Shown here: one piece after another, positions 3,403-43,368 of the stretch
Position numbering within the stretch: position 1 is the stretch's first letter
Layout of the letters: the number at the start of each line of letters is the position of its first letter
Assembly: GCA_013387215.1 (NCBI GenBank)
Contig: WARW01000001.1
Coordinates: 12,735 to 76,734, forward strand
Reading direction: 5' to 3'
DNA length: 64,000 bases
From: Patescibacteria group bacterium
Lineage (GTDB): Bacteria > Patescibacteriota > Microgenomatia > UBA12405
The notes under the pieces: generated by a model
What the model saw: only the letters and a program-made list of their open reading frames with translations
What the model was told of the DNA's origin: nothing
Databases searched by the model: none
Program-made: the position numbers and the translations under genes

Positions 3403-5319
3403 TTGCACCAGTGGGGGCATTTAAGTATGGATAATACAAGCAAAATTGAAACAGGATCAAGATATTTTATTTATTGCCGCAAGTCATCAGACTCCGAAGA
3501 TAAACAAATAGCTTCATTGCCCGACCAAATAAAAGTGATGACTGAGTTGGCACACAAACTAAAATTAAAAATAGTTGATTCTCTCCAAGAGAAAAAATCT
3601 GCCTTTAAAATAGGAAGACCAGTATTTAATCAAATGATTGAAAGAATAAGTAGAGGTGAGGCCGACGCTGTTTTATGTTGGGATCCATCAAGAATTGCTC
3701 GCAATAGTAAAGATAGTGGCAACTTTATTTATCTTATGGATGAAGGAAAACTAAAAGAACTTAGAACTCCAAACAAGACTTTTTACAACACCGCTGATGA
3801 TAAGATGATGCTTAACGTTGAATTTACTATGACTAAAAAATATTCGGATGATTTAAGTGTTAATGTGCACCGCGGTAATCGCCATAAATTTTTTGATCTT
3901 AAGGAATGGGGTGGAGTCGCAAAACCAGGATACCTTAATTACACTGATCCATTGACCAAAGAAAATCATATAAAAACAGACCCTGATAGATTCGAGATGA
4001 TTCAAAAAGCAATCCTTCGGATTTTAGATGGAACTCATACCCCCATGGAATCACTGCGTGAACTTAATAACAAAGGGTATACAACCAGAAAAACAAAGAG
4101 TCTGGGTGGTAGACATTTAAGTAGGGCATCATTTTACAGAATATTAGCTGATAGTTTTTATTGTGGAGTTATGAAAAGAAAAGTAGGTGATAATCGTGAG
4201 GTAGGGAAAGGTTCCCATGAACCAATGATTTCAGAAGCTCAATTTGATTTATTGCAGATAAGACTCGGTAAAAAAGGTAAGCCTAGATATGGTAAAAATA
4301 ATTTTCCATATAAAAATTTATTGAAATGTGGTGAATGTGGTGGATCCGTTACCTGCGAAGAAAAATATCAGATTATCTGTCCTACTTGTAAAACTAAATT
4401 CCATAAAGGCAAAAAAACGGATGAATGTCCGAATTGTCATATGAAGATAGAGGAAATGAAGGATCCAAAACTACTACATTATATTTTTTATCACTGTACA
4501 AAGAGGGTTCATAAAGATTGTAGTCAAGGGAGTATAACTTTGGAAAATATGGAAAAAGAAATCGACTACAAACTGCAAAAGTTTGAGATTGATCAAGATT
4601 ATCGCGATTTTGCCATCGACCATCTGAAGGAATTGAACACCGCCGAGGAACAAGAACAGGAGACTTTAAGGGACAGGCTGAATAAGAGACTGGAAGAAAC
4701 CAACTGGAGCATCAATAACTTGATTAGATTGAGAACCAGAAGAGAAAATGTAAATGACTATGAAAACGAGGACAAACAAAAAGCCTACGATGAAGAAGAA
4801 GATAGATTATTGGCTGAAAAGAAATTACTTAAAAAACAAATAGATGAGGTGGACGGTCAACAGATCGAAAGACTTGAAATGGCGAAAGAAACTTTCGATT
4901 TTGCTTACTATGCCCGCCACTACTTTGCTACTGGAGACGTCCTTACTAAAACCAAAATTCTGGCGAGACTTGGTTCGAACCTAACTATTAAAGATAAAGA
5001 ATTCCATATAGAAGGGGAAAATGCGTTTTTCTTAATCGAGAAAGGTAAGAAGGAGATTGCCGATATCATAAATTCGTTAGAACCTGAAGAAATACCGAAT
5101 AATTCCAAGGGATTATTAGCACTCGAACCAGTTTGTCAATCTTGGCGGAGGAGGTGGGATTCGAACCCACGAGTCCTTTCGAACACACGCTTTCCAGGCG
5201 TGCGCCATAAACCACTAGGCGACTCCTCCTTAGGTGAGAGTATTATATCTTATTACTCTATTTCTTCCAAAGACTCAAAAGAATTTACTGTTTTATTAGG
5301 GCTTCAAGCTGGTTTTTAG
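3403..5319 (+). CDS. Large serine recombinase (resolvase/invertase N-terminal domain, recombinase domain, Cys-rich zinc ribbon, coiled-coil C-terminus).
   Basis: N-terminal YFIYCRKSSDSEDKQ...SLPDQ (catalytic Ser context) and GEADAVLCWDPSRIARN. Central recombinase domain. CGECGG...CPTCKTK...CPNCH zinc-ribbon cluster. Lys/Glu-rich coiled coil. The last ~60 codons run antisense through a tRNA and are probably not real. The true start is probably M at 3427. Confidence 0.7.
   Translation: MHQWGHLSMDNTSKIETGSRYFIYCRKSSDSEDKQIASLPDQIKVMTELAHKLKLKIVDSLQEKKSAFKIGRPVFNQMIERISRGEADAVLCWDPSRIARNSKDSGNFIYLMDEGKLKELRTPNKTFYNTADDKMMLNVEFTMTKKYSDDLSVNVHRGNRHKFFDLKEWGGVAKPGYLNYTDPLTKENHIKTDPDRFEMIQKAILRILDGTHTPMESLRELNNKGYTTRKTKSLGGRHLSRASFYRILADSFYCGVMKRKVGDNREVGKGSHEPMISEAQFDLLQIRLGKKGKPRYGKNNFPYKNLLKCGECGGSVTCEEKYQIICPTCKTKFHKGKKTDECPNCHMKIEEMKDPKLLHYIFYHCTKRVHKDCSQGSITLENMEKEIDYKLQKFEIDQDYRDFAIDHLKELNTAEEQEQETLRDRLNKRLEETNWSINNLIRLRTRRENVNDYENEDKQKAYDEEEDRLLAEKKLLKKQIDEVDGQQIERLEMAKETFDFAYYARHYFATGDVLTKTKILARLGSNLTIKDKEFHIEGENAFFLIEKGKKEIADIINSLEPEEIPNNSKGLLALEPVCQSWRRRWDSNPRVLSNTRFPGVRHKPLGDSSLGESIISYYSISSKDSKEFTVLLGLQAGF
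5143..5229 (-). tRNA. tRNA-Ser (anticodon GGA) with long variable arm; CCA encoded
   Basis: Reverse complement reads GGAGGAGTCGCCTAGTGG...CTGGAAAG...GGGTTCGAATCCCACCTCCTCCGCCA. 7-bp acceptor stem, T-loop TTCGAATCC, anticodon loop CTGGAAA. Confidence 0.8.
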
Positions 5320-29041: not shown

Positions 29042-30853
29042 ATGTCAAGAAACATTGAGAGTCCAAGTTTCGTACAAATCAAAGAAGCTTTGGCTTGTCC
29101 GCATATTCAAAAAACCGCTCGCCCTATTGGTGTCGACTTGTTTTATTCGGATCTGGAAAGTGCTAAGGAAAGAAGACAGCTTTTGGAAAAAATGAGCCAT
29201 CTTTTTGATCAGATTCCAGACCTAAACATGGATGTCGATACCGCTTTAAAAAATAATTTAATTAGCTCTGAAAACTTATCTAATGTTTATCAGGATTTAT
29301 CTGATTTCATCAGCTCAGATTCCAATCATTCTCGTTTAGCTTTATATCTGCCTTTCCAAATTATTCCCAATTTAAATCCAGACAATTCAAAAAATATAAC
29401 CGAATCTCAGGTTAAATTTGCTAACGTCTATAAAAATGCTTGGATGCAATTGTTGTTTGAAAGTGATATTCGGGCGGATTTTTTAAACGGAGACACATTA
29501 GAACCAGGCCTAGGCGAACCAGCTCGAGTCAGAAAAGCAGCCCATTTAATACCGGAAATTTTAAAAAAGGGAATTATTGATAAAGAAGATATTGACTTAA
29601 TATTAGAAATAAATAAATCAGATGATGAATTATGCCATTCAATTAACGAAGGAGTAATTGCCTACGAGAAATTAAATAAATCAGAAAAATCTGAGGAAAC
29701 TTCAGAAATTTTTGATTTAGATAATTTAAAAAAAGAACTGGCTCTTATTGATAAAAATTACGGACCAAATTCAGAAAATATTTCCAAATTAAGTCTAAAG
29801 GAAAAATACGATTCGCCCAATCTGCTTGATTCAAAAATCAGCCAAGAAAGAGCTGCTTGGATAAGAAGAACTAAATATGGAGAAACTTTAAATAAATATG
29901 CCCAAAAAATTCATAATTTTAATACCATTGATTCTTTATTAGAAGCAGATGAACCAGTCTATAAAATACTTGGCTTAAAAGCGATTTTTAATCAAAATCA
30001 ACCGACTGATATCTTTGATAAATTAATTGAGGAACAGTGGTTGACTGGTAATAATCAAATCAAGGAAGCAATAATTACCGGCCTAAGTTATTGGCAAAAA
30101 AATAATCTAATTTCTTCACATTACCTAGATCGATTCGGAATTAAAATTCCTGATTTATCACAACCGTTTTCAGTTGATTTAGATAAATTAATTTTGTCCG
30201 ACCTTAAAAATATGACAGAGGCTGTAGAAGGAATTAAAAATGAATCAATTCTTTCTGAAAATATTTATCCAACCATATTAGTATTTGGATCAAGAGTCAA
30301 AGGATATTCTGGTCTTGATTCTGATTATGATATCGCTGTCTTTTTTAAACCAAACGCCTTAATTGATAACCGGAATTCAATTCTTCAATCAATCAAAGCG
30401 ATTCCTTCATTAAAAGAAGTAGGGAAGATATGTGAATTTTGGACAACCGAAAATGATGGAAAAATAGGTCTTAGACCAATCTCAGAAAAAGTTTGGGGCA
30501 TGATTGGACCGGAACAAATTCACTTTTTATTTGGAGGTGCTTGGATTGGTGATAAAACCGATATAAATAAAATACAGCAGGATCTTTTGGAAAAATATTG
30601 TGATTTATCAAGATTTGACCATCAAAAAGATTTGGTACGATCTCGCTTGCTGGGTAATTTAGAATACGATATTCTTCAATGCCGTCTTATGCATAAGGGG
30701 TATCGAAAATTTTATCCTGATAAAATTGATCCGAAAATTAAAAGTATAAACGCTATTGATGGAAATAGTGCCTTTTGGGATCCTGGGTTTAGACGAGTGG
30801 CAACGCAACTTTTTTTGAGTAGAGTATTTTTACCTGATTTATCGGGTAAATAA
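29042..30853 (+). CDS. Large protein with a C-terminal Pol-beta-superfamily nucleotidyltransferase domain. The N-terminal ~400 aa are unknown.
   Basis: GS-x9-DxD motif ILVFGSRVKGYSGLDSDYDIAVFF (MNT/KNTase-like). Convergent with the PurA-like operon, with a 15-nt overlap. Confidence 0.55.
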   Translation: MSRNIESPSFVQIKEALACPHIQKTARPIGVDLFYSDLESAKERRQLLEKMSHLFDQIPDLNMDVDTALKNNLISSENLSNVYQDLSDFISSDSNHSRLALYLPFQIIPNLNPDNSKNITESQVKFANVYKNAWMQLLFESDIRADFLNGDTLEPGLGEPARVRKAAHLIPEILKKGIIDKEDIDLILEINKSDDELCHSINEGVIAYEKLNKSEKSEETSEIFDLDNLKKELALIDKNYGPNSENISKLSLKEKYDSPNLLDSKISQERAAWIRRTKYGETLNKYAQKIHNFNTIDSLLEADEPVYKILGLKAIFNQNQPTDIFDKLIEEQWLTGNNQIKEAIITGLSYWQKNNLISSHYLDRFGIKIPDLSQPFSVDLDKLILSDLKNMTEAVEGIKNESILSENIYPTILVFGSRVKGYSGLDSDYDIAVFFKPNALIDNRNSILQSIKAIPSLKEVGKICEFWTTENDGKIGLRPISEKVWGMIGPEQIHFLFGGAWIGDKTDINKIQQDLLEKYCDLSRFDHQKDLVRSRLLGNLEYDILQCRLMHKGYRKFYPDKIDPKIKSINAIDGNSAFWDPGFRRVATQLFLSRVFLPDLSGK

Positions 30854-32290
30854 GTATTCGTATCCTGATCTTATTTTTCTATCTTTTGCTTTTGGTCCCC
30901 ATCCTTCAGCCACTACTGGAATTTGGATCTTTTCTTCAACATAATCCAAAAAAGTATCGACCATTGTTTTGTTATTTTCGGGTTTAAGGGTAGATAAAAT
31001 TGGCTGGCATTGATTAAGTAATTTAGTCAATTGCAGTTGGTGTTTATAATGAGCTTCGTCTTGAGTATTAGGATAAATTTTAATTCCAGTAATGATATCG
31101 TTTTCCATTTCAAAGTAGTCTTCCAAATTAGTATTTTCTCCATTAAATTTATAGCCCTCACAAATCTGCCACTCATTTTTTTGAGATAAAACATCAAGAT
31201 AACTGATCATTAGACCGTCAAAAGATTTCTTTCCGCCGCTAATTTCAACAGCATATTTCATGGCCACAATATCATAATTACCATTTCTAAATTCTCCCAG
31301 CCATTCAGTCCAATTATTGTGAGTTTCCTGAATTGAATCAGTCATTTCTCGATTAAAACTAACCAGTGGGCCGGCTCCATGGCGGGTCATATAGCATCGG
31401 CTAACACCAATTCGGACTATCTCCCCTGAATAATTTTGTTTTTGAAGAGTGCCAAGAATATCTTGAGAAGTTGGATCGATTTGAGTAGTGTGAGGAATAA
31501 AGCCGTACCATGGGTGTAAAAGTGCACCATGAGAAGTTTCGCAGACCACTAAACCTTCTTGTGACAGCATTTCATTTAAATAATTATCGTCAACAATTTT
31601 GAACAAATCGGCAGTGTATTTGAATGATTTGGCAGTTGATCCAACAAAACTTTGATCATAAAGTATTTCCAATTGTTCATATGCTTCTTCCGGCAATTGA
31701 TCTAATCCAAGAATTAGTTTTTGAGCTTGTTGAATTTTATTTTGCCGGATATTTTCTATTTTTTGGCACAAAGTTTCTTCATCATCGCTAAAATCGCCGG
31801 CTCTGATTGTTAGTTGTGGATCTTTTGAATCTTTTATGGCTTCGCCAACCCCCATACCAACTGTTCCTTTCTTGTCTTTACCTCGCATAATTTCGCGAAG
31901 TCGGCTTATAGCCCGGTGAAACGGAGTTATGGAAATACATTCTTTATCGATAGTTATTAAATCGAATGGATTTTTTACTCCCTTTTCTTCAACCTCAATA
32001 GCCTCATTAAAGAGATCAGTCGGGCAGATTACCATGTGTTTTAAGTGAGTTTTAGCGCCGTCAAAAGTACCAGCCCCAAAATGGCTAAACATTTGTTCTC
32101 GCCCATCTTCGGCTGTAATATGGTGTCCGGATTGGCAGCCTCCTGATCGCCAAACAGTATGAGCATTAAGCATTTTAGTAAAAGCTTCAACTGTGTTGCC
32201 TTTGGTTTCTTCGCCAATACCTAAACCAGTAACCACAATGACTTTATTTTTGGGCTTTTCAAAATTAATATTTGAAATTATTTCTTTCAT
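30839..32290 (-). CDS. Adenylosuccinate synthetase (PurA)-family protein, divergent paralog 1
   Basis: PurA-like P-loop GLGIGEETKGN (compare GDEGKGK), GGCQSGHH (compare GGHNAGHT), TVGMGVGEAI (compare TTGRGIGP), RHGAGPL (compare RVGAGPFP). The catalytic Asp is replaced by Glu in the P-loop. Confidence 0.65.
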   Translation of the reverse strand: MKEIISNINFEKPKNKVIVVTGLGIGEETKGNTVEAFTKMLNAHTVWRSGGCQSGHHITAEDGREQMFSHFGAGTFDGAKTHLKHMVICPTDLFNEAIEVEEKGVKNPFDLITIDKECISITPFHRAISRLREIMRGKDKKGTVGMGVGEAIKDSKDPQLTIRAGDFSDDEETLCQKIENIRQNKIQQAQKLILGLDQLPEEAYEQLEILYDQSFVGSTAKSFKYTADLFKIVDDNYLNEMLSQEGLVVCETSHGALLHPWYGFIPHTTQIDPTSQDILGTLQKQNYSGEIVRIGVSRCYMTRHGAGPLVSFNREMTDSIQETHNNWTEWLGEFRNGNYDIVAMKYAVEISGGKKSFDGLMISYLDVLSQKNEWQICEGYKFNGENTNLEDYFEMENDIITGIKIYPNTQDEAHYKHQLQLTKLLNQCQPILSTLKPENNKTMVDTFLDYVEEKIQIPVVAEGWGPKAKDRKIRSGYEYLFTR

Positions 32291-32291
32291 A

Positions 32292-32342
32292 AACCTTTCG
32301 TCCTTTTGGACTCATCAGTATCGATACGCATCGATAGAGGTT
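32292..32342 (-). ncRNA. Type III hammerhead ribozyme motif (copy A), immediately 5' of and overlapping the SD of the PurA-like gene
   Basis: The minus strand reads aaccUC | UAUCGAUgcguAUCGAUA CUGAUGA GUCC-AAAA-GGAC GAAA GGUU u AUG. The conserved CUGAUGA and GAAA cores are present. Stem I hairpin 7 bp, stem II 4 bp, stem III 4-5 bp. Cleavage site is UC. Confidence 0.6.
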
Positions 32343-32404
32343 GAATAGCTAAAAGCCAGTCTTTAAATTAATAAAGATAGCTTTCAGCTATTCTGTAAAG
32401 AGTG

Positions 32405-33556
32405 TTAGAACTTATTCCAATTGATTCCGCTTCCAGGCTGTTCATCCTTTATTGGTTGCTCTACAACAGTAGTTGCATCGTGCCCGATAGGCCAAATGTC
32501 GCGAAGATTGGCGAATTTGTCTCCAGGTTTGGGGATTTTATTATATCCGGGTAACTTCGCCTGGGCGCCAAAAAGCGGTTTTGCAACCTGCAGCCATCCC
32601 CATAGACGATTAACATCGCGTTGTGAAATATGATCATTGGAATTGCCAGCCAGCAAGAATTTGTTTAAACCGTCTTCGGTAGGTTGCAGAGTCTCTGTAA
32701 CATAAATTAGCCCTGCTTGAGCTTCGGCAAGTAGGTCAGGGTCAGGAATTGAAATAACTCTGTCTTCACCTAAATATTGCTGCCACCAGTAGATATTTGA
32801 ATTATTATGGCCAACATTAAGGTAAAACAAATGCCATTTTGATATCAGGCTTTCACAAACCTTTTTCAATGAAACCTTTTCGCTTTGCATGGTATGACCT
32901 AAATATCTTTCAACATCATGTTTGGTTACATACTCCCTGCAATCAGCATCAGCACCTAAGAAGAAATAACCTTTAAGACCGTAGTTTATAATGTCGACTT
33001 CTGTCTGATTATCGACATACCACAAACCAAGTTGATAATCTTCTGTCCAATCATCGCCATCTTTATCGGGAACCAATAACTCAACATGTTCAACGGCGCG
33101 ATTATCAGATTCAAATTCGGCCATTTGGAATGGAGGGTGGTCATCTTTTACATCCTGCAGAACGGCAACGGACAGATCTATTTGATATCTATCCTGTAAT
33201 TCTGACAGCATACAATAGACCTTCCCCATTGCCTTAAGAGCAAGTGCTACTTTTTCGCCCATTGAACCGGTTCCGTCTGTTCCTAAGATAGTCGGTAATT
33301 TAATACCTTTTGCCAATATATATATTTTTTTTCCAGCCTCATCCAACAGCACCATCGCGTTACGAGAAAGACGTTTAACACCAAAAATATTAACATTTTG
33401 ATGTAATTTGCCAGTTTTTTTGAAAACTTCATGACCTTTCTCATGAACAGTTTCGGTAAATCTCACCCCTTTCGTTGTTGCTCTTTCTTCCATTTTTCTA
33501 ACGGTTTCTACATGCTTCACTGCATTAAAAGTAGAGGTATCTTGCTTCCTTGCCAT
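32405..33556 (-). CDS. von Willebrand factor A (vWA) domain protein
   Basis: MIDAS motif ILGTDGTGSMG. Size and position are paralogous to the 38215-39762 vWA protein. Confidence 0.55.
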   Translation of the reverse strand: MARKQDTSTFNAVKHVETVRKMEERATTKGVRFTETVHEKGHEVFKKTGKLHQNVNIFGVKRLSRNAMVLLDEAGKKIYILAKGIKLPTILGTDGTGSMGEKVALALKAMGKVYCMLSELQDRYQIDLSVAVLQDVKDDHPPFQMAEFESDNRAVEHVELLVPDKDGDDWTEDYQLGLWYVDNQTEVDIINYGLKGYFFLGADADCREYVTKHDVERYLGHTMQSEKVSLKKVCESLISKWHLFYLNVGHNNSNIYWWQQYLGEDRVISIPDPDLLAEAQAGLIYVTETLQPTEDGLNKFLLAGNSNDHISQRDVNRLWGWLQVAKPLFGAQAKLPGYNKIPKPGDKFANLRDIWPIGHDATTVVEQPIKDEQPGSGINWNKF

Positions 33557-33587
33557 TTAAATCAACCCTTTCTTTTTTTAATTTTTT

Positions 33588-34553
33588 TTACCTTGGATAC
33601 GTCCGAAATTCATGAAATTGTCTTTTTAACCCTTTTCCATCCCAAGTCGGTTCTTTTGGCCAAATTTCATCAGATAGTTTGTAAAGATCATCAAACTCCT
33701 CCCCAGCAGCTTTAGCATCACCATCCATAATTCTTCGTAAGAAAGAAACATACTTATCGTAAGCATCTTTACTCATAATTTCCGAATCATAAGGCGGATT
33801 TGATTTTTCAGTGCCTCCGGCTGCTTCCCAGGCTATTTTTGCCGCTGCCACAACTTCTCGAATCTTATCGGCATAACTCGGATCTCCCTTAGTATTGGAA
33901 AAATCCAGTATAAATACTCCATGAAGTGCAGTTTCGACAAGTTCATTGTCGGCATTAACCAATCCAACCGTTAAATCAAAACTGTGGACAAAATACAGCA
34001 ACTTCAAAAGTTTTCCAAATATCCATTGGACACTTTTCAAATCAACCCTTTCCGTTGCTGTTATTACCGATAGTGGTGTTAATTGTTTATAAGAATTTAT
34101 ATTCTCGTGGTATCCCAAAAACAAAGCTGTTCTGTCTCCGGCGTCAATTTTTTCAATTAACTTCGGAAACATCGATCCGTAAAATGCTGGAGTTTCGTTT
34201 TTGCTTATCGCTTCCTGATCTAGTTCATGAGCAATTCGTTGAAGCTTTTTGAGCGTTAATGCTTCATTGTTAAGAACATTATTGCGCTCACTGCTGTTAA
34301 CGATTTTCATTAATCCGAATTGACTTGATGGTAATTTTGCTGCATAAACTCTAAATACGCTTGTTTGGGCTATTGGTAATGGATTTGGGTTATCTCCGGA
34401 TTTTAAACCGAAAATTTCATACTGGCCATTCAATCCATCGTAAAAACCCATGCTGATTAAATTAGATTCAGCTGGATTTTCACTTGGAACTAATAAGGCG
34501 ACATTTAACACTAAATCCGTTAGCCATCCTGTTGAAGAATCATTTTTTGGCAT
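33588..34553 (-). CDS. Protein-kinase-like protein (Hanks/APH-like fold) with the shared N-terminal WLTDLVL peptide
   Basis: HSFDL...N catalytic-loop-like segment and ILDFSN (DFG-like). N-terminal MPKNDSSTGWLTDLVLNVALLVPSE. Confidence 0.45.
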   Translation of the reverse strand: MPKNDSSTGWLTDLVLNVALLVPSENPAESNLISMGFYDGLNGQYEIFGLKSGDNPNPLPIAQTSVFRVYAAKLPSSQFGLMKIVNSSERNNVLNNEALTLKKLQRIAHELDQEAISKNETPAFYGSMFPKLIEKIDAGDRTALFLGYHENINSYKQLTPLSVITATERVDLKSVQWIFGKLLKLLYFVHSFDLTVGLVNADNELVETALHGVFILDFSNTKGDPSYADKIREVVAAAKIAWEAAGGTEKSNPPYDSEIMSKDAYDKYVSFLRRIMDGDAKAAGEEFDDLYKLSDEIWPKEPTWDGKGLKRQFHEFRTYPR

Positions 34554-34556
34554 TTT

Positions 34557-34754
34557 TCACACCCCTCTCATTAATTCATTCATAAAATATTTCTTAACGT
34601 TTTTTCGTTCTCTAAAGTATTCATGGATGTAGCTTCTTTCTTTAACTTTAAACTCCTTTCTCACCTGACTGATGTCTGACTCTTCAGAAACAGGTAATAA
34701 TGAAGCAAAACATAAAACTAATCCAGTCAGCCATTCCTCAGGTGTTTTTCTCAT
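34557..34754 (-). CDS. Small protein consisting of the shared N-terminal WLTGLVL peptide plus a basic tail
   Basis: MRKTPEEWLTGLVLCFASLLPVSEE matches the N-termini of the two kinase-like proteins. Confidence 0.4.
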   Translation of the reverse strand: MRKTPEEWLTGLVLCFASLLPVSEESDISQVRKEFKVKERSYIHEYFRERKNVKKYFMNELMRGV

Positions 34755-34851
34755 TCCGATTCACCCTTTCTATTACTAACACTTTATTGTTAAAGAACTT
34801 TTAATAAGATCATGACCGCTTTGACCAAGATCTTACCCAGATATCATCCCA

Positions 34852-34905
34852 AATTCCTTTCGTCCTTTTGGACTCATCAGTATCGATACACATCGACAGA
34901 GGATT
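34852..34905 (-). ncRNA. Type III hammerhead ribozyme motif (copy B)
   Basis: The minus strand reads aauccUC | UGUCGAUguguAUCGAUA CUGAUGA GUCC-AAAA-GGAC GAAA GGAAUU. 47/50 identity to copy A in the core. An a-to-g change in stem I makes a G-U wobble. Confidence 0.55.
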
Positions 34906-34975
34906 GGGGGAGTTTGTTTTTTTTATTGAGTATTGATACTCAAAACAAACTCCGCCCGGGACTATCATTTGATTT

Positions 34976-35476
34976 TTAGATTCTAATCCGTGAATCAGCA
35001 GGCCTGATGCCTTTTTGGTAAACCAATTGCATTAGTACCTTTAGTTGCGGACCAAAATCCTTTTTCAGATCTTCAGGCATAGTATTAAGAAACTGGTAGT
35101 CATCCTTGAAAAGAAAGCTAGATAAACTAGTCAATTCCGGATTTTTTTCAACCAGACTCAAATATGCCTCCCTGGTGGCGGTTGTAAACACTTCTTTGGG
35201 AGCACAGGCACGCAGGGTTAAGATGTGAACAGGTTTCATCGTATTCCAACCAGTCTTATGTTCGGAAAACATGTTGGCATCCATACGTTCTGCATTCTCA
35301 AATAACCAAGTGGCAACTTTGGAAACATCTTCCTCTTGAATTATCCTCAGATAATCCCTCAGGAAATCATTACTTGCGAAAGGAATTGCCTCCAGCGGGT
35401 CGGTCCTCCTTAGACAGTTTTTCCCATGGAATCGATGTACCGAGTTGTAACAGGGCAGCAAGATATGCATATTCAT
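34976..35476 (-). CDS. Hypothetical protein. Overlaps the upstream gene by 107 nt in a different frame, so it may be a frameshifted continuation or start at internal Met 35284.
   Basis: ORF track. Protein-like composition continues on both sides of the overlap. Confidence 0.3.
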   Translation of the reverse strand: MNMHILLPCYNSVHRFHGKNCLRRTDPLEAIPFASNDFLRDYLRIIQEEDVSKVATWLFENAERMDANMFSEHKTGWNTMKPVHILTLRACAPKEVFTTATREAYLSLVEKNPELTSLSSFLFKDDYQFLNTMPEDLKKDFGPQLKVLMQLVYQKGIRPADSRIRI

Positions 35477-36521
35477 ATTGGCCAGCTGTTACTTTCGGAT
35501 ATTCCATAATGGACAAAGCATACCTGGTGATACTACGCTCCATTCTGACATAATCAGCTGAAACATTCACATCAAGCATTTTGAGCATCTGTTCTTTGTT
35601 GGCGGCGCCAATTTGAGCTGGTAGGGCTGAATTTTCCAAAACCTCTTTGATTCTGTTGGCATCCAATGCTAAAGCCCTGGCAATCACGATACCTGTGCCG
35701 GCAAAAACCTTGTTGATCTTATCAATCACACCTTCAGCTCCATCGCGCAATGCGCTTGTATCGGGTGGCTGCTGCATCATACCTGCTGGCATTCCTGCTT
35801 GGCCTCCTGTTGCATAAATAGCAAGAGCCATCATTGCTGTAGGAGCTACTCCTTGCTGGTACGAATTAACCCATGACACAACCTGCTGGTTGTACTCGTA
35901 GAGTGCTGGCCAGAGATTCGTCCTGAGTTTATTGAGCAACGCGTCTTTCTTTCCCTGGGTTACGCTGGCACTGTCGATGTCGAGAGCCTGGAAGATTTCT
36001 GCATAATTACGTTTGGTAACCAGTTTCTGCAGCTTGTAGAAATCTTCTCCGCACGGTTCTTCCTGTTCTTCGGCAAATTTTTCCATCCGGTCCATAATGA
36101 TTTTGGGCAATTCGTAAAGACCGCTTTTGTCTGCCAATGTTGCCCTGATGGCTGCAATAATTTCAGTTATGCCGATTTTCAGCTCTCCACCTATTTTCAG
36201 CATGGCTAAAAATGAGGTATCGTCCGGAACCTGTGGCAGAACGTCCATTGACGGTTGAGCTGCTGCTGTTGCAGTTGCTTCAATTTTCGGTTTTTCCTCC
36301 TCTTTGGGTTTGAATGCTGCCGCAATTTTTTTTGCTACCACAGCACCGCATCCGGCATAAGATTTGATCTCGTCGGCTGACAATAAAACCATGTCCGCTT
36401 CAGTCATTACCCCTTCAGTTTCCAGTTTTGCAATTTGGTCTTCTTTAAGTCCGAGCTCGGTTAGCCTCAGTTTCAATGTTTCTTCCATAACAAAATCTCC
36501 CTTCATCTTTGAAATCACCAC
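35370..36521 (-). CDS. Hypothetical Ala/Gln-rich protein with N-terminal helix-hairpin-helix-like module. First gene of the second transcription unit.
   Basis: LTELGLKEDQIAKLETEGVMTEADMVLLSADEIKSYAGCGAVVAKKI (HhH-like). Local GC is noticeably higher than the surroundings. Confidence 0.4.
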   Translation of the reverse strand: MVISKMKGDFVMEETLKLRLTELGLKEDQIAKLETEGVMTEADMVLLSADEIKSYAGCGAVVAKKIAAAFKPKEEEKPKIEATATAAAQPSMDVLPQVPDDTSFLAMLKIGGELKIGITEIIAAIRATLADKSGLYELPKIIMDRMEKFAEEQEEPCGEDFYKLQKLVTKRNYAEIFQALDIDSASVTQGKKDALLNKLRTNLWPALYEYNQQVVSWVNSYQQGVAPTAMMALAIYATGGQAGMPAGMMQQPPDTSALRDGAEGVIDKINKVFAGTGIVIARALALDANRIKEVLENSALPAQIGAANKEQMLKMLDVNVSADYVRMERSITRYALSIMEYPKVTAGQYEYAYLAALLQLGTSIPWEKLSKEDRPAGGNSFRK

Positions 36522-36805
36522 TATACAGTCATATCCATATTTATGACTAATGGCTTGCTGGACACAAATTTTGTACCCAAAAAGCCACTAGTCATTTATA
36601 TTCAAATGATAGTCTTTGTAAAAATTTTTTTCTTTCACCAGCTTTTGGTGTAAATCAAAAAATCCTTACTTTGTTAAAGTGCAAATTTAGCCTATAGCTT
36701 AGCACAAGGGATTGCTGTAGTCAATCAAAAATTATTGATCATTACCGTAATATTTTTCGTAATCATAAAATATAATCATAAACTTATAATAATTAAAATT
36801 TTTAC

Positions 36806-36860
36806 CAAAAAAAACCTCAATTTAGAAATTAATTAGCATTCGCTAAAAAATTTCACCATT
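36806..36860 (-). terminator. Rho-independent terminator after PurA-like paralog 2
   Basis: The minus strand reads accucaaugg...(inner hairpin uagcgaaugcua)...auugaggu followed by UUUUUUUU. Confidence 0.45.
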
Positions 36861-36866
36861 GAGGTA

Positions 36867-38213
36867 TTAAATATCAATCGAAATCTTTTGATCTCGATCA
36901 GGGCCAACTGAAATTAAACCGATAGGAACGCCTAATTGTCCCTCGATATACTCCAGTAAGCTTCTAGTTTTAGAAGGTAAGTCTAAATAATTTTTGATAT
37001 TTGAAATATCATCTTCCCATCCTGGAAGGGTAGTGTAGACAGGCTGGCAGTTCCAAAGCAATTTCGACATTACTTCATCCTGCTTTTGCAGTTTCACTCC
37101 TACAATCTGATTATTGGGCCCGAAATCAAAGTATTTGTTTAAGGTTTCTTCGCTCTCTTTGCCGATATATCGGTAAGAATTTGCAAATTTGATTTCTTTT
37201 AAACCAGACATTTTGTCCAAGCAGGACACTACCAGTTTGTCGATTCTTTTGTTCACTTGAAGCGAATATCTAAGCAGTACAAAATCTAGCCAGCCTTGTC
37301 TGACAAATCTTTGCCAAGGAGTATAAACGTTATGAGTTTCTTCCAGATTTAAGTTTTCATCTACTGTTGGAAATGGTCCTGCCCCATGTCGGACACTGTA
37401 TGGTCTTAATAATCCTAGTATAACCGCTTCTTTTTCTCCAAGAAGTTCCAATGCATTAGCTATGGATGTCCTAGTCTGGGTGATATTTGGTTTAAAACCA
37501 TAATCGCAATCCAAAATTGTGCCCTGAGCTGCCTCAAAAATATTATTTTGAGTTTGGATTATCTTTTGTATTTCTTCATCACTTAAAATACCCACCCTTT
37601 TGGTAAGTTCCAAATAAATTTTAGCCAATCCTTTTGGTGAGTACATTTCAAACTCTTCTAAAAGTATTTTTGTTTCTTCGTTACTGGCTAGCTGTTCTAT
37701 CTGGTCAAGTTTTAACATCTTTAGTGTTTTTAGCTTGTATTCCAGATCAGGTCTCAACAGATCTTTCGCTCTAATACTAAATGCAGGATTTGTCCTTTCA
37801 TCTATAACCGTTTCTCCAACACCTCTTCCGCAAGTTCCTTTTTTGGTTGTTCTTAGTATTTCTTTTATCTTTCCGCAGATTATTTGGTAGGGGGTAATTA
37901 CTAAAGAGTTTTCTGATATCAATAATTTTTCAAATGGATCAGAAATACCCTTAGTTTCTAGTTTTTCTCCCTCTACCAAAATTCCGATTGGATCAATCAA
38001 AGTAAACTTTGAAATTATAGTTTTTAAACCAACAAAGGTTCCGGATCCGAATTGGGAAAAGGTGTGGTGGATCCCACTCGACACCACATTGTGAGCACAC
38101 TGAGATCCACCGCAATATCTGACCACATTTCCTCCATATTTTGAGGCTAAAAAATCAACCATTGATCCTTTACATTCGTCACCTTTATCTAGGCCCACAG
38201 TTATCCAATCCAT
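36867..38213 (-). CDS. Adenylosuccinate synthetase (PurA)-family protein, paralog 2 (closer to canonical)
   Basis: GLDKGDECKGSMVD (P-loop GDEGKGK), CGGSQCAHNV (GGHNAGHT), TCGRGVGETV (TTGRGIGP), VRHGAGPFPTVDE (RVGAGPFPTE). Confidence 0.7.
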   Translation of the reverse strand: MDWITVGLDKGDECKGSMVDFLASKYGGNVVRYCGGSQCAHNVVSSGIHHTFSQFGSGTFVGLKTIISKFTLIDPIGILVEGEKLETKGISDPFEKLLISENSLVITPYQIICGKIKEILRTTKKGTCGRGVGETVIDERTNPAFSIRAKDLLRPDLEYKLKTLKMLKLDQIEQLASNEETKILLEEFEMYSPKGLAKIYLELTKRVGILSDEEIQKIIQTQNNIFEAAQGTILDCDYGFKPNITQTRTSIANALELLGEKEAVILGLLRPYSVRHGAGPFPTVDENLNLEETHNVYTPWQRFVRQGWLDFVLLRYSLQVNKRIDKLVVSCLDKMSGLKEIKFANSYRYIGKESEETLNKYFDFGPNNQIVGVKLQKQDEVMSKLLWNCQPVYTTLPGWEDDISNIKNYLDLPSKTRSLLEYIEGQLGVPIGLISVGPDRDQKISIDI

Positions 38214-38214
38214 C

Positions 38215-39762
38215 TTAAAGTCTCCTTGTCTTTGACCCTGTTGTCTTGTTTACAGGTTTATTGTCGGGCATTTTCATATCGACTGTAATTTCTGGCACCA
38301 AACTATTGTCCAGTGGCCTTAAAGCAGTTTCGATGTCATTTTGCCGTTCTATGGTTTGATCTCTATCACGCATATCCTTGATGTAGTCTGACAATTCTCG
38401 GCCTCCGTATCTTGCCAAAACTCCGATAATCAAATCAACAATTCCTTTTGGATCTTTCAATCTTAAAACATGATCCTCGGGAATTACCGATGACCATTGC
38501 GCCACGATCACGTCGTCTTGGTAGTTAGCATATTTATCCTTTGTTTCCGTTATTCTTTGTTCTGGATCATAATCAAACTCCAGAATTAGTATATTACTGT
38601 TTTCCCTTGTCTTATAAGCTGGCATTACCTTTTCAAAATGCTGTATTTCACCATTGATTTCAACTTCCACAGTAAACTGTGTTTCTATACTTTCTGATTG
38701 GTGAAAAGCATAGTTTTGAACATACACTTTATAGTGTCCTTTTCTGGCTCTGCCTTTTTCCCATCTGATATTTTCCACAGGTTTTGTTGTTTCCCCGTGC
38801 ACATTCATATCTACATCCAAAAAACCTCCACACGGAGCCTTTTTGTTCTCACTTGGATAGTAAATATGAAAACCAGATGGGGTAATCACATGTAAGTCCA
38901 AGTCATTGGTGTTGTGCCAAATCAGTGAAACCCTAATATCGACTCCCTCATACAAGCCCCCGGCTCTTTCGACTCTCTTTTTGATCTCATTATCAATATC
39001 AGTTTTTCTTTTTTCCCATGTTTTTTGCGGGAAAATAAAGAATACTTCATATTTATCCTGAAGATCAGCAAAAACTTTCTTTGAGTCTAGGTCTTCGGGA
39101 ATATCATCGCCGATTATTCTTTTGACTTCATCTTTCGATACTTTGTCATAAAATCCTTCATCGCCAATGAAAAAAAGATAACCTTTTTCTCCGCGGTCAT
39201 TAGCCTCCAACGTTGAGTGATAAGCATAAAAATAACCCATCAATTCATAGGATTCTTGCCCGGTGCCGCCGCCGCCTTTTTCTGGCCACATGCATGAAAG
39301 CACTTCATCAATTTTGTCGTCATAATAAAATTTGCCGACTTGAATTGGTGCTTTGTCAAACTTAGCGTCGCCCAAACCAGCAAAACTAATCACTGGATTA
39401 AGAACGTAGCCCTTCATATTTATTTGGCCAATGAGCATTGGGACTTTTTTGTCGATTATTTCAATATCCTTTCCGCGTGAATCGGTAAAATCTGAAACCA
39501 CTACGATTGGTGTTACTTTTGCTGCTATGTTACGGATAAAATCCAAACACTGTCGAAATGCATTTTTTGGATCAAGACTAGCATGAACCACTCTTTCTTT
39601 TGTAGCATTTTTACCCACCACATCATATTGATATTCTGTATTCACACTGCTTGTTCCCACGCTTCTTTCGTAAAAAACCATATCAGATGGTCCATCGCCG
39701 TCTCCGCCTCCCATTAAAAATGGTGCCAAAAAAGCACAACGCAGTATTCTTAAAAATTTCAT
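38215..39762 (-). CDS. vWA domain protein with additional C-terminal beta-rich domain (possibly TerD-like, acidic Ca-binding-like motif)
   Basis: MIDAS-variant VVVSDFTDS and LFFIGDEGFYD (vWA beta4 hhhhTDG motif). The C-terminal segment DLDLHVITP...IYYP...GGFLDVDMN...PVENIRW resembles the TerD pattern. Uncertain. Confidence 0.5.
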   Translation of the reverse strand: MKFLRILRCAFLAPFLMGGGDGDGPSDMVFYERSVGTSSVNTEYQYDVVGKNATKERVVHASLDPKNAFRQCLDFIRNIAAKVTPIVVVSDFTDSRGKDIEIIDKKVPMLIGQINMKGYVLNPVISFAGLGDAKFDKAPIQVGKFYYDDKIDEVLSCMWPEKGGGGTGQESYELMGYFYAYHSTLEANDRGEKGYLFFIGDEGFYDKVSKDEVKRIIGDDIPEDLDSKKVFADLQDKYEVFFIFPQKTWEKRKTDIDNEIKKRVERAGGLYEGVDIRVSLIWHNTNDLDLHVITPSGFHIYYPSENKKAPCGGFLDVDMNVHGETTKPVENIRWEKGRARKGHYKVYVQNYAFHQSESIETQFTVEVEINGEIQHFEKVMPAYKTRENSNILILEFDYDPEQRITETKDKYANYQDDVIVAQWSSVIPEDHVLRLKDPKGIVDLIIGVLARYGGRELSDYIKDMRDRDQTIERQNDIETALRPLDNSLVPEITVDMKMPDNKPVNKTTGSKTRRL

Positions 39763-39785
39763 TTTAAAAACCCCTTTCCTTATTC

Positions 39786-40739
39786 TTAAAATTCAAACAC
39801 TTGGAATCCGATATCTCCCCATATTTCTTTCCTCAATTCGTACAGTTTTTTTGCCATATCCCATGCATCCCTAGCCCTTTGTATTGGACTGGAGATTAAA
39901 AAGTTTTCTATAAATCTTTGGAATCGGGGGTCAACAGTATCAGGAAGACTATTATCCTCAAGATTGCCACCCAAAAGGTAAATCATACATTTACCAATGG
40001 AATACATATCTGAAGATTCTTTTGGTTCGTCTTTTTTCTGCACCTCCGGAGCGCTGTAATCATCATTTACTGCCCTAAAACCAGCCTTATTTATTGAAGC
40101 ATAACTCCAATCAATCAAACAGGCATTATGGTCATCTTTATGATTAGTCAGCAAATCCACAGGTTTTATGAGAATGTGTGCCGGTTCAATATTGCAATGA
40201 AATATTCCTTTACTATGGGCATATCCCACTGCTGCTAAAATTCGGCACAGCATCCAGGCGGCATGATAATCGGGAACTCCCGACACATACAATGGATGTT
40301 CTCTGATTTGGTTAAGGTTGAAACCCTCAAACTTCTGAAGAATTATCCCCACCGTCTTTTCTTTTGTTTTAAATCTATCCAGGAATTTTGGCAAATGAAC
40401 TTGGTTTTGGTTTTCTTCTGCAAATAATGCATTTAAGATTTTTATCTCATTATTTGCAAACTTATTGTCGATTTCTTCTTTGATTACTTTAACAATGATG
40501 TTTATGCTTTCGCTTTCATTGGCAAAATAACCCTCATAAATCATCGACAAGTCGCCCTCACCAATAACTTTGTTGACGTGGTATTCACGATTTTTAATCG
40601 TTATTACCCAGTCCAGTTTCTCAGATTCATTTGTTGCATTTGAAGCCCCTAAAACTACACCAGTCAACCAGCTTTGAGGATTTTTTTCATCCATTTTTAT
40701 CACCCTTTCTTTATTAATCAGTTTCGATTTTGATATCAA
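39786..40739 (-). CDS. Hanks-type protein-kinase-like protein, probable pseudokinase
   Basis: Gly-rich loop VIGEGDLSMIYEG, VAIK-like IIVKVIK, catalytic-loop HCNIEPAHILI (HRD Asp replaced by Asn), DFG-like IDWSYA, APE motif YSAPEV. The likely start is M at 40694, giving N-terminus MDEKNPQSWLTGVVLG. Confidence 0.55.
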   Translation of the reverse strand: MISKSKLINKERVIKMDEKNPQSWLTGVVLGASNATNESEKLDWVITIKNREYHVNKVIGEGDLSMIYEGYFANESESINIIVKVIKEEIDNKFANNEIKILNALFAEENQNQVHLPKFLDRFKTKEKTVGIILQKFEGFNLNQIREHPLYVSGVPDYHAAWMLCRILAAVGYAHSKGIFHCNIEPAHILIKPVDLLTNHKDDHNACLIDWSYASINKAGFRAVNDDYSAPEVQKKDEPKESSDMYSIGKCMIYLLGGNLEDNSLPDTVDPRFQRFIENFLISSPIQRARDAWDMAKKLYELRKEIWGDIGFQVFEF

Positions 40740-41319
40740 ACTTTTGCTTTTCTATACACAGCTTTTGAGCAATTTCCACCTGGTCGTAAAAATTCTTTTT
40801 TATTATTTTTTCATTCATCCCAAATTCTTCTACATCCCTTTTAATCCTCCTTTCCAATCTCGTTTTTGAACTCGCCGACATAAAAATATTTACTTTTTGC
40901 TCAAGATTTCCAATAGCTTCGCTGATCATTGAAGCATATAATCCTTCAACGATAATGTATTTTTGGGAAACTATCGCTTTTGTACCTACTCTCATGTTTG
41001 TTCTAATATCGTAATCAGGAAACATAACTTCTTTTTCTACTGAAAGTTTTTTGATATAACCTTTCATTTCTTCAATATGATAAGAGCTTGGCATATCAAA
41101 CGATCGATAACCGCTTATTATTGGCAAAGAATTATCGTTTTTGTTTTTAAAGCAATCATCCATTTCTACAACCACACTCTCATCATTCAAAAACTCTTTA
41201 AGTAATTTAGCTAAATATGTTTTGCCTGAACAACTGCCGCCGCTGATAAAAATAAAATAGGGGAAAACTGAAGCCTCTTTAATTTTGCTTATTAACCAAT
41301 CTACATTCAAATCAATCAC
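40714..41319 (-). CDS. P-loop nucleoside/nucleotide kinase-like protein (uridine kinase / PRK family)
   Basis: Walker A FISGGSCSGKTYLAKLL resembles the uridine kinase motif GIAGGSGSGKTT. Confidence 0.55.
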   Translation of the reverse strand: MIDLNVDWLISKIKEASVFPYFIFISGGSCSGKTYLAKLLKEFLNDESVVVEMDDCFKNKNDNSLPIISGYRSFDMPSSYHIEEMKGYIKKLSVEKEVMFPDYDIRTNMRVGTKAIVSQKYIIVEGLYASMISEAIGNLEQKVNIFMSASSKTRLERRIKRDVEEFGMNEKIIKKNFYDQVEIAQKLCIEKQKFDIKIETD

Positions 41320-42061: not shown

Positions 42062-43120
42062 ATGAATAAATTGTTTGATTTTGAAGCGCATCCGCAAGCT
42101 GCTTGGCTAACCACCAACAGAGATTGTGATGCCAGGTGTCCACATTGTTATGCCCAAGGAACTCATTATGATCCTGCTGATGATATGACTATCGAAACTG
42201 CCAAATCACTTCTGGCTTTACTTGTTAGTATCGACATAAAGCTTGTCACTACTTTAGGAGGAGAGCCGCTGCTTTGGAAGCCGTTGTTGGAATTCAATCG
42301 GATTGCCAAAAGCTTGGGTATTACTACCAAAATGGCAACAAATGCATTTCGTTTTGGTGATAATGAATTTTGGCAAAGATATCTAAAAAATCCTTGTGAT
42401 TCCGTCGGTATCTCTATCAAAGGAGTCGGCGCCGAAATGCTCAAAAGATTGGCTAATGTCACAGATTATGAAAAAGCTGAAAAAGGTATTAAACGAGCCA
42501 TGAATTTTTACAAAAATGGCGTTGGTACGGTTTTTAGCAGCTTGATGACTCTCGACGACCTGTGGAAAATTGCCGAAACTACCCACGAATGGGGAGCAAA
42601 AACATTTTCCATTGGATTTGCCTGTGCCACTTTGGACTCAGAAGGTTGCCCTTCGAAGAAAAACTATATGATTAAGCTCGACAAAATCGAGGAGTTCATC
42701 CAAGTATACGAAAGAATCGATGAGCTTTTTGAAGGCAGTGTTGGTTTTGAACCCCAGCTTCCGTTTTGTTTATTCAGGGAAGATTTTATTGATAAGTTGA
42801 TTGATAAGGGTCAGCTGTCGAATGGTTGTTTTGTCAACAGCCGCGGCGGATTTACCTTCGATAAAGATGGTAATGTTTTGATCTGCAACTCGATTTATCA
42901 TGAACCTATCGGAAGAATCGGCAAAGATTTCACCGATGGCTCCACCCTGATTAATCATCTTAATAGTGAACCTATCAAAGATATTTTCAGGGAGCTTTTG
43001 CGTTATCCGTCCGATGTTTGCCTGGCCTGCCGCTACAACAAATACTGTCGTGGAGGCTGTGTTATCAATTGGACTGCTTTAACGCCAGACATATTACAGC
43101 CTGTTTTAAAGGAGGTGTAA
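42062..43120 (+). CDS. Radical SAM enzyme with C-terminal SPASM domain (peptide-modifying maturase)
   Basis: CxxxCxxC CDARCPHC. SPASM Cys cluster CFVNSRGG...ICNS...CLACRYNKYCRGGC. Confidence 0.85.
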   Translation: MNKLFDFEAHPQAAWLTTNRDCDARCPHCYAQGTHYDPADDMTIETAKSLLALLVSIDIKLVTTLGGEPLLWKPLLEFNRIAKSLGITTKMATNAFRFGDNEFWQRYLKNPCDSVGISIKGVGAEMLKRLANVTDYEKAEKGIKRAMNFYKNGVGTVFSSLMTLDDLWKIAETTHEWGAKTFSIGFACATLDSEGCPSKKNYMIKLDKIEEFIQVYERIDELFEGSVGFEPQLPFCLFREDFIDKLIDKGQLSNGCFVNSRGGFTFDKDGNVLICNSIYHEPIGRIGKDFTDGSTLINHLNSEPIKDIFRELLRYPSDVCLACRYNKYCRGGCVINWTALTPDILQPVLKEV

Positions 43121-43122
43121 TC

Positions 43123-43368
43123 ATGGATAAATTTTTAAACAGTTTAAACAAAATTGGTTCGAAAGAAACCGAACCTGTCCAACCCTTATCTCCAACCTGT
43201 GCCAAATCCCATTGCGCTTGTGAACATTGCGAATGTCAATGTCAGTGTCAATGCCAATGCAGCCCGAGTCAAAAAGATATCGAAGATATTGTCAAAAAAA
43301 CAGTCAAAGAAGTTAGTAAGGAACAGAAAAAAGACAATAATAACGATAACAACGATAACAACAAATGA
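43123..43368 (+). CDS. Cys-repeat precursor peptide (putative RiPP core, or metal-binding peptide). Starts 2 nt after the rSAM stop.
   Basis: MDKFLNSLNKIGSKETEPVQPLSPT leader-like N-terminus, then CAKSHCACEHCECQCQCQCQCS (9 Cys, CxC repeats), then a Lys/Asn/Asp-rich tail. Confidence 0.55.
   Translation: MDKFLNSLNKIGSKETEPVQPLSPTCAKSHCACEHCECQCQCQCQCSPSQKDIEDIVKKTVKEVSKEQKKDNNNDNNDNNK

Follow-up and report, generated by a model that had tools for sequence, protein, structure and literature searches.

A predicted N-terminal helix on two paralogous kinase-fold proteins of a Patescibacteria locus and its stand-alone copy, most likely a duplicated gene start

Why should three open reading frames (ORFs) of one bacterial locus begin with the same short peptide, when one of them is only 65 residues (aa) long? 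This question is raised by a 64-kb stretch of Patescibacteria DNA, hereafter referred to as the window, in which an initial annotation, made from the letters alone, had noticed a common W-L-T-G-L-V-L-like peptide at the start of two kinase-like proteins and of a short ORF located directly upstream of one of them. It had proposed that the short copy could be a decoy or regulatory peptide, a docking or targeting tag, or a duplicated gene start. We call the short ORF orf65 and the two long ones k1 and k2, as they belong to modules 1 and 2, respectively, of a two-module gene cluster.

Three open reading frames share an N-terminal motif

The pattern WLT[GD][LV]VL occurs exactly three times in a six-frame translation of the window, always on the minus strand. 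One site (34733-34713) falls in orf65 (34557-34754; MRKTPEEWLTGLVLCFASLLPVSEE...), one (34526-34506, reading WLTDLVL) in the 321-aa k2 (33588-34553) and one (40670-40650, reading WLTGVVL) in the 302-aa k1 (39786-40694). The motif begins 8-10 residues after the Met in all three carriers, and their N-termini are as the initial annotation gave them. The pattern was absent from 200/200 shuffles. A position matrix of 35 other family members assigned 34.6 bits to k1, 28.3 bits to orf65 and 23.9 bits to k2, while the next-highest 16-mer anywhere in the window scored 12.3 bits; the shuffles and this low runner-up score together rule out a chance origin of the shared motif. The same window-wide matrix scan detected the motif on no unrelated protein of the locus, the only carriers being k1, k2 and orf65. 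BLASTP comparison of orf65 with the two long proteins gave E values of 0.004 and 1e-4.

A Shine-Dalgarno (SD)-like sequence, AGAAAGGGTGA (34762-34772, minus strand), is located 7 nt ahead of the orf65 ATG. It corresponds to the SD consensus of the operon, and it precedes orf65, k1 and the vWA-like gene of module 2. In the case of k1 it lies 6 nt upstream of Met 40694, and the public gene call is an identical 302-aa protein, so the choice of this Met as the k1 start, made earlier in part to avoid an overlap with the upstream gene, is supported. Across the family, the conserved core of the motif is W-L-T-G-L-V-L-G-A-A, and the trailing [PN]-[SE]-E of the formula proposed at the same time is weakly conserved: Pro is found at +13 in 11 of the 37 motif-bearing family proteins described below, and the acidic residue following it is likewise weakly conserved. 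Similarly, there are indeed three carriers of the motif, but they are really two full-length paralogues plus one orphan fragment rather than three unrelated proteins.

Sequence comparison identifies k1 and k2 as full-length paralogues

The k1 protein matches the Pfam family Pkinase with 58 bits (cut-off 31.7). Throughout its family, H166-C-N168 is invariant in place of HRD and D-W-S replaces DFG, while K69 (the beta3 Lys), E83 (the alphaC Glu) and D195 (the DFG Asp) are invariant as well; k1 had been taken for a pseudokinase from the start, and this combination of a Pkinase match with HCN for HRD and DWS for DFG agrees with that. For k2, no sequence match was found in Pfam, NCBIfam, PADLOC or PDB. 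Its AlphaFold2 model (predicted local distance difference test score, pLDDT, 87.5; predicted template modelling score 0.85) gave 1894 PDB kinase matches in Foldseek at E<=0.001, with AGC and PAK kinases among the nearest folds. K83 and E97 are invariant in k2, the Asp of its DFS is present in 7/8 orthologues, and an Asn is aligned by hhalign opposite the Asn of the k1 HCN, which means that the HRD Asp is not present. As the catalytic HRD Asp is replaced by Asn, we file both k1 and k2 as predicted pseudokinases or atypical enzymes.

When the k2 family was aligned with the k1 family (hhalign), a probability of 97.8% and an E value of 8.9e-13 were obtained over residues 5-300, the motif included. 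Judged by this alignment, k1 and k2 are full-length paralogues, and thus the motif that they share was inherited rather than attached to each of them independently as a tag. Independent tagging of unrelated proteins, which we also considered, is ruled out on the same grounds.

Bacterial pseudokinases and protein-kinase-like (PKL) families offer an obvious comparison: k1 has its Pkinase match, k2 has the bilobal fold, and the beta3 Lys, the alphaC Glu and the DFG Asp are kept. On the other hand, k1 and k2 differ from them in being devoid of the HRD Asp, in the lack of any Pfam, NCBIfam or PDB sequence match for k2, in being embedded in a vWA-like/PurA-like cluster of which no description was found in the literature, and in having a WLTGLVLGAA helix, a string not found in a text search of the literature.

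A conserved N-terminal helix as a putative docking element

Conservation of the motif in orthologues had been named in the initial annotation as the test of its idea, and the motif turned out to be conserved. It is kept in 7/8 orthologues of k2, which are 302-330 aa long and have one motif each. An exhaustive profile search yielded 310 family members, and among the 179 full-length proteins retrieved over all searches, 37 carry the motif at residues 6-17. The three nearest full-length homologues of k1 (P0011-P0013) read WLMGMAL, WLIGLTL and WLTKLVL at this position. The family consensus consists of six polar or acidic residues followed by W-L-T-G-L-V-L-G-A-A, of which the Trp is invariant; EEWLTGLVLGAAS is a peptide carrying this N-terminal motif.

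Many other family members have no N-terminal extension and start directly at the first beta-strand. Further members possess about 100 extra N-terminal residues of J-domain-like character, with HPD in some of them, and the Pfam DnaJ matches of these regions are sub-threshold (E 0.017-0.028). Such J-domain-like k1 homologues are about 370 aa long (P0014-P0031, P0078, P0087 and P0110), and one of them is encoded in locus L007 (8001-9089). All components of the two-module cluster are present in L007, where the J-like N-terminus is found on k1 and the 294-aa k2 lacks any extension. Because this locus is complete although neither of its pseudokinases has the motif, the helix is an optional N-terminal module and not a part of the core machinery. 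As homologues have either a J-domain-like region or nothing in its place, the N-terminus of this pseudokinase family appears, from the sequences compared, to be an exchangeable adaptor site.

In the AlphaFold2 model of k2, the motif forms a helix at residues 9-19 (WLTDLVLNVAL) with a pLDDT of about 72, flanked by segments below 50 (residues 1-6 and 23-29); the k1 model stays below 50 throughout residues 1-26. The linker between the helix and the kinase core is of low confidence and variable in length. A conserved sequence that monomer prediction leaves unplaced is what one would expect of a tethered interaction motif, and we thus infer that the N-terminal helix is a tethered docking element. 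In other words, the models and the alignments suggest that the motif represents a genuine N-terminal helix of this kinase-fold family, one not described before, and most likely a docking element. For the motif itself, the earlier idea of a docking or targeting tag is plausible, as the motif is conserved, is predicted to be a helix on low-confidence linkers and is swapped for a J-domain-like region in homologues, but its sharing by k1 and k2 is due to common descent.

Co-occurrence provides one lead to a partner of the helix. A homologue of the small protein p166, encoded in the window between an HhH-like gene and the hammerhead ribozyme HH1 (34976-35476, minus strand), is present in 7/7 loci bearing the motif and in 0/4 loci lacking it, the loci not being independent samples.

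Encapsulation peptides and the docking domains of polyketide synthases and nonribosomal peptide synthetases resemble this element in being helices of about 10-18 residues at the extreme N-terminus, followed by a poorly conserved linker and missing from many homologues. Here, in contrast, the carriers are confined to two paralogues and a fragment and include no unrelated cargo enzymes, docking is predicted only, and the locus has no scaffold or shell gene: no scaffold, shell or other compartment family was found among the 16 neighbouring proteins scanned. A second comparison is with the effector-associated and adaptor domains of conflict-system loci (Kaur et al., 2020; PMC7159879). The likeness is in the idea of a small N-terminal module that recurs on several proteins within one locus and has a role in their assembly, and in an N-terminal position that appears exchangeable in the present family (with a J-domain-like region in homologues). 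Such domains link otherwise unrelated proteins, whereas the carriers here are paralogous; nor is there an NTPase/effector architecture here, PADLOC giving generic kinase matches only.

orf65 is most likely a lineage-specific duplicated gene start

The ATG codons of orf65 and k2 are 201 nt apart and in the same frame, with TGA AAA between the two ORFs, so that the stop is located 3 nt ahead of the k2 ATG, while the SD sequence of k2, GAGGGGTG, lies within the last codons of orf65. The orf65 ATG follows HH1 by 104 nt, and in three related loci (L004, L006 and L053) it is the k2 ATG that follows the hammerhead, by 76, 101 and 94 nt, respectively. Moreover, the 5' untranslated region (UTR) of orf65 aligns with the k2 5'UTR of L004. 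As orf65 starts at the position at which k2 starts in its relatives, and as the UTRs align, about 200 extra nt are present between the ancestral 5'UTR and the present k2 start.

Similarity of orf65 to the family is limited to its beginning. Residues 1-21 constitute the family motif and residues 26-65 an orphan tail; in hhalign only residues 1-22 match, with E values of 3.9e-6 for the k2 family and 3.4e-4 for the k1 family. At the nucleotide level, orf65 and k2 are 60-70% identical over about 45 nt on a 207-nt diagonal, with background elsewhere, and the comparison with the 5' region of k1 gave a score of 44 (shuffles, 20.7 +/- 2.8). This similarity to k2 and k1 is restricted to the SD and motif region, and within the ORF it is confined to the segment coding for E-W-L-T-G-L-V-L-C-F-A-S-L-L-P (34692-34736, minus strand). 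The tail of 40 codons matched neither k2 codons 26-67, nor the 5'UTR, nor anything else that was fetched.

We found no homologue of orf65 among 5.8 billion proteins. Its second occurrence is a 917-nt contig (L049) of the same population, with 1 mismatch and the same TGA. The initial annotation had raised the possibility that stand-alone copies recur in other genomes, and this was not seen in the protein collection, nor in six syntenic loci (L001/L010, L003, L004/L005, L006, L020 and L053), nor in the 38 hammerhead-bearing GTDB loci, nor among 150 family representatives. A protein of 111 aa, P0112, at first sight resembled a second stand-alone copy, but it was rejected, as it stems from a k2 gene frameshifted in an A-run: its source is a 1.3-kb metagenome contig (L053, 930-975), in which a frameshift-split k2 homologue mimics an N-terminal fragment in the public collection. 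A scan of genome contigs with the k2 profile returned nothing, and that of metagenomes returned one locus, a repeat of L001. As a candidate upstream ORF, orf65 is a short ORF directly before k2, with no conservation upstream of the k2 orthologues.

As for coding potential, the codon usage of the orf65 tail falls within the coding range: compared with real coding windows it ranks at the 16th percentile, and among open non-coding windows it lies above 91%. At the composition of this genome (35% GC), the chance that 40 further codons stay open is about 5%, which is an estimate. In the 14 motif codons aligned between orf65 and k2, a manual count gave identity at 22/28 first and second positions and at 6/14 third positions; third positions being near saturation and first and second ones conserved, this can be taken as a hint of selection on the orf65 motif.

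Among the three readings offered by the initial annotation, the duplicated gene start is the one best supported, given the occurrence in a single genome, the start position equivalent to that of k2 and the family-like nature of only the first ~21 residues. These sequence features make it most likely that orf65 is a lineage-specific duplicated gene start; it is probably translated, and it may have no function. orf65 is similar to the partial gene duplicates and orphan small ORFs known from elsewhere: it starts where the parent gene starts, has kept the SD, the ATG and ~21-25 initial codons, and is restricted to one genome. It differs from them in having a fully preserved motif next to a remainder in which nothing of the parent gene can be traced, and in that it is open, in frame and tight against k2, and may have been kept.

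Weighing of the explanations

The explanation that we favor, with a probability of roughly 0.6, is that k1 and k2 are paralogues sharing an inherited docking helix and that orf65 arose in one lineage as a partial duplicate of the k2 start. The shared peptide would then be the N-terminal extension of a single family, namely an apolar helix of about 10 residues, with about 8 polar residues before it and a variable linker behind it, placed ahead of a catalytically degenerate protein-kinase fold. There would be one such protein in each of two paralogous modules (pseudokinase, vWA-like and PurA-like), with the motif present by descent, and the flexibly tethered helix would bind a partner common to both modules. 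Duplication of the k2 gene start would have provided an SD, an ATG and ~21-25 motif codons, continued by 40 codons of obscure origin, and orf65 would thus have come to lie, in the k2 frame, after the orthologous 5'UTR and ahead of the start now used by k2. It would probably still be translated, perhaps with translational coupling to k2, given the 3 nt that separate its stop from the k2 ATG; that it might compete for the helix partner is speculative. Several points speak against this explanation. A simple tandem duplication of 201 nt is not supported, since the tail shows no likeness to k2 codons 26-67 or to the 5'UTR. The codon pattern of the motif hints at a functional peptide better than at a decaying relic, even though, with 14 codons compared, neutral drift of orf65 would fit as well. 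None of the related loci is close (k2 identity <=58%), and so a clade-specific, conserved orf65 could exist. Finally, the helix may dock in cis on its own kinase core, its partner being hypothetical.

Two alternatives concern orf65 itself. It might be a functional small protein, a trans-acting decoy or regulator which has the same docking helix, competes for or bridges to a common partner and is translationally coupled to k2. The intact motif, outscoring the copy of k2 itself on the position matrix, the canonical SD, the 65 open codons with the low estimated chance for the last 40, the tail codon usage, the better preservation of motif codon positions 1 and 2 and the stop just ahead of the k2 ATG all fit such a role, but taken singly they are weak, with a likelihood ratio of about 2 for codon usage and 14 codons in the motif comparison. 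The lack of homologues among 5.8 billion proteins, the 0/6 related syntenic loci with a stand-alone copy, the frameshift behind P0112, the sole apparent second case, and a tail without any match make this alternative improbable in our view. A more specific version, in which orf65 is a young micro-protein born from a duplicated docking helix and acting as a trans competitor or adaptor, co-translated with k2 downstream of a self-cleaving hammerhead, is slightly less probable still. It is also conceivable that orf65 and k2 form one gene for a 388-aa protein with two N-terminal helices in tandem, the in-frame TGA being subject to readthrough or recoding or resulting from an assembly error, as the frame is the same and TGA AAA is the sole separator. 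Against this, TGA terminates 8/58 long ORFs, and ORFs of the standard code, with 18,545 codons, already cover ~87% of the 64,000 nt of the window, from which it follows that the standard code is in use in this genome; the TGA recurs in a second assembly, which shows 1 mismatch over 917 nt; the stop comes with a good SD (GAGGGGTG) and with an ATG right after it; and the orthologues of 302-330 aa have a single motif. TGA usage, ORF coverage and the second assembly rule out an alternative genetic code or an assembly error at this TGA, and we consider the one-gene model very unlikely as a whole.

The other two alternatives concern the helix. Instead of serving as a tag for another protein, it could act in cis by packing on its own kinase core, thereby stabilizing or gating the pseudokinase conformation. 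In this it would resemble the Trp-bearing A-helix of PKA or the hydrophobic motif of AGC kinases, an analogy drawn with PKA and PDK1; the moderately confident helix in the k2 model (pLDDT ~72), the invariant Trp at the head of the motif and the AGC and PAK kinases among the nearest folds would be in line with such an arrangement. It is harder to reconcile with pLDDT values below 50 for the 26 N-terminal residues of k1, with a low-confidence segment of varying length between helix and core, and with the many family members which do without the helix or have a J-domain-like region, and we therefore regard an analogous cis role as unlikely, about as much so as a functional orf65. Last, the motif could be a targeting signal, that is, a Sec/Tat signal peptide, a membrane anchor or a microcompartment encapsulation peptide. 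It does have an N-terminal apolar stretch followed by a linker, a layout similar to that of encapsulation peptides, and the orf65 version (WLTGLVLCFASLLPV) is the most hydrophobic one. Yet the n-region of the consensus is acidic or polar and the apolar core, of ~10 residues, is rich in Gly, Ala and Thr; the consensus has no AxA site, twin-Arg or lipobox; no shell or compartment family was recognized among the 16 neighbours; and the motif is confined to paralogues instead of occurring on the unrelated enzymes of the cluster. We give this possibility hardly any weight, as little as the one-gene model.

A class of type III hammerhead ribozymes flanks these genes

Two elements were found in the window as a 47-nt direct repeat. 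HH1 (34856-34902, minus strand; predicted cleavage after C34899) is a type III hammerhead of the form CCUC-cleavage-UGUCGAUGUGUAUCGAUA CUGAUGA GUCC AAAA GGAC GAAAGG, and HH2 (32294-32340, minus strand) is 96% identical to it. Rfam Hammerhead_3 (RF00008) scores are 28.6 bits for HH2 and 27.3 bits for HH1, which is below the gathering cut-off of 48.5. The same element occupies the same two positions in L003, L004 and L006, and an exact-core scan of GTDB genomes found 38 further loci, mostly in Patescibacteria metagenome-assembled genomes and in many gene contexts (hammerhead-bearing loci include L001, L003, L004, L006, L011-L049 and L053). Across 49 distinct copies, stem I pairs form in 40-46/49 (expected, 21-33), one of these pairs being CG in 16, UA in 15, GC in 4 and AU in 4; positions 4-5 of stem III covary too, and the cleavage-site nucleotide H17 is C in 31, U in 15, A in 3 and G in 0. 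The minimum free energy fold reproduces the three-way junction. By this covariation, a type III hammerhead class widespread in Patescibacteria flanks the genes described here, and self-cleavage is predicted. In common with known type III hammerheads (RF00008), these elements have the CUGAUGA...GAAA core, which is perfect here, an arrangement of three stems of which stem III is open, and no G at the cleavage site. They differ in their minimal form, in which stem I has 7 bp and a GUGU/GCGU loop, stem II has 4 bp and an AAAA loop and stem III has 3-5 bp, in scoring below the Rfam threshold and in being sited between cistrons of Patescibacteria operons.

The 3' end of HH2, GAAAGG, is located 3 nt ahead of the ATG of the PurA-like gene, and a distance of 3-8 nt between the HH2 end and the PurA-like start codon is seen in the window, L003, L006, L020 and L033. 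With the end so close to the start, the 3' strand of stem III, GAAAGG(AG), doubles as an SD sequence (window 32291-32300, minus strand; L003 11839-11852; L006 10720-10733; L020 7024-7031; L033 3868-3871), and self-cleavage of HH2 could free a ribosome-binding site, as the sequence arrangement suggests. HH1 is found after the p166 gene even where there is no downstream gene (L001 15081, L046 3001), and thus it seems to belong not to orf65 but to the HhH-like/p166 unit, whose 3' end it would mark. A long hairpin lies directly 5' of HH1 (34905-34955, minus strand; GGAGUUUGUUUU...AAAACAAACUCC; GGAGUUUG.../...CAAACUCC) and is also present in L004 (~4960-5020) with compensating changes. By its position after the p166 gene, HH1 may delimit the HhH-like/p166 transcript and protect its 3' end. 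Another long, imperfect hairpin was noticed at 36536-36600 (minus strand), just upstream of the start of the HhH-like gene, where it surfaced as a spurious sub-threshold match to a miRNA family; it might be a terminator or a processing signal between the modules.

The surrounding two-module gene cluster

The cluster occupies 29042-41319 of the window and is also found in L006, L007, L008, L051 and L052, that is, in Patescibacteria-type genomes and metagenome contigs. The gene order in module 1 is uridine-kinase-like, k1, vWA-like (515 aa; 38215-39762, minus strand), a pyruvate-kinase-like gene in some loci, and PurA-like, i.e. of the adenylosuccinate synthetase family (36867-38213, minus strand; PF00709, E 1.3e-73). 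In module 2 it is HhH-like, p166, k2, vWA-like (383 aa; 32405-33556, minus strand) and PurA-like (30839-32290, minus strand; PF00709, E 5.8e-47), with a convergent gene for a Pol-beta-type nucleotidyltransferase of 600 aa in addition. The two vWA-like proteins match each other and are paralogues, and so do the two PurA-like proteins; since the k, vWA-like and PurA-like genes are thus pairwise paralogous, the window holds two paralogous triads. The vWA assignment of the 383- and 515-aa proteins is tentative; it is based on a metal-ion-dependent adhesion site (MIDAS)-like DxTxS loop seen by eye, DGTGS in the 383-aa protein, with no Pfam or PDB sequence match. Residues ~290-370 of the 515-aa protein (DLDLHVITPSG...GGFLDVDMN), which are absent from the 383-aa paralogue, match DUF2135 weakly (E 0.15).

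The two-module cluster is apparently undescribed: a literature search on the cluster, the motif string and hammerheads of Patescibacteria/Candidate Phyla Radiation (CPR) found nothing relevant. A known defence system was considered and dismissed, as PADLOC yields generic kinase matches only. The cluster often adjoins genes of NAD salvage or synthesis (NAPRTase, NAD synthase, NMNAT and a CN_hydrolase-NAD_synthase-NMNAT fusion), as seen at L003 4085-6157, L008 1-849, L051 5195-7654 and L052 1832-4285.

Elsewhere in the window, an ORF with a Cys-rich repeat (CACEHCECQCQCQCQC; 43018-43368, plus strand) lies directly downstream of a radical SAM/SPASM gene (42062-43120), which it overlaps. Located beside two tRNA genes, the Cys-rich ORF and the radical SAM/SPASM maturase gene are a possible precursor/maturase pair of a ribosomally synthesized and post-translationally modified peptide.

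Biological meaning of the shared peptide

The finding is real but largely ordinary, in the sense that the sharing of the peptide by k1 and k2 is paralogy. The hammerhead class and the uncharacterised two-module cluster seem to be the more promising leads, and the hammerheads are probably of wider interest than the peptide. orf65 is a single-genome curiosity, which matters only if it is translated and active; should it be a trans regulator, it would represent a natural spin-off of the docking motif of a signalling protein, in an uncharacterised nucleotide-metabolism or signalling cluster of Patescibacteria. What W-L-T-G-L-V-L-G-A-A adds is an undescribed N-terminal element on an uncharacterised bacterial kinase-fold family, and if the helix is indeed a docking element, it would offer a direct handle for finding what these pseudokinases bind.

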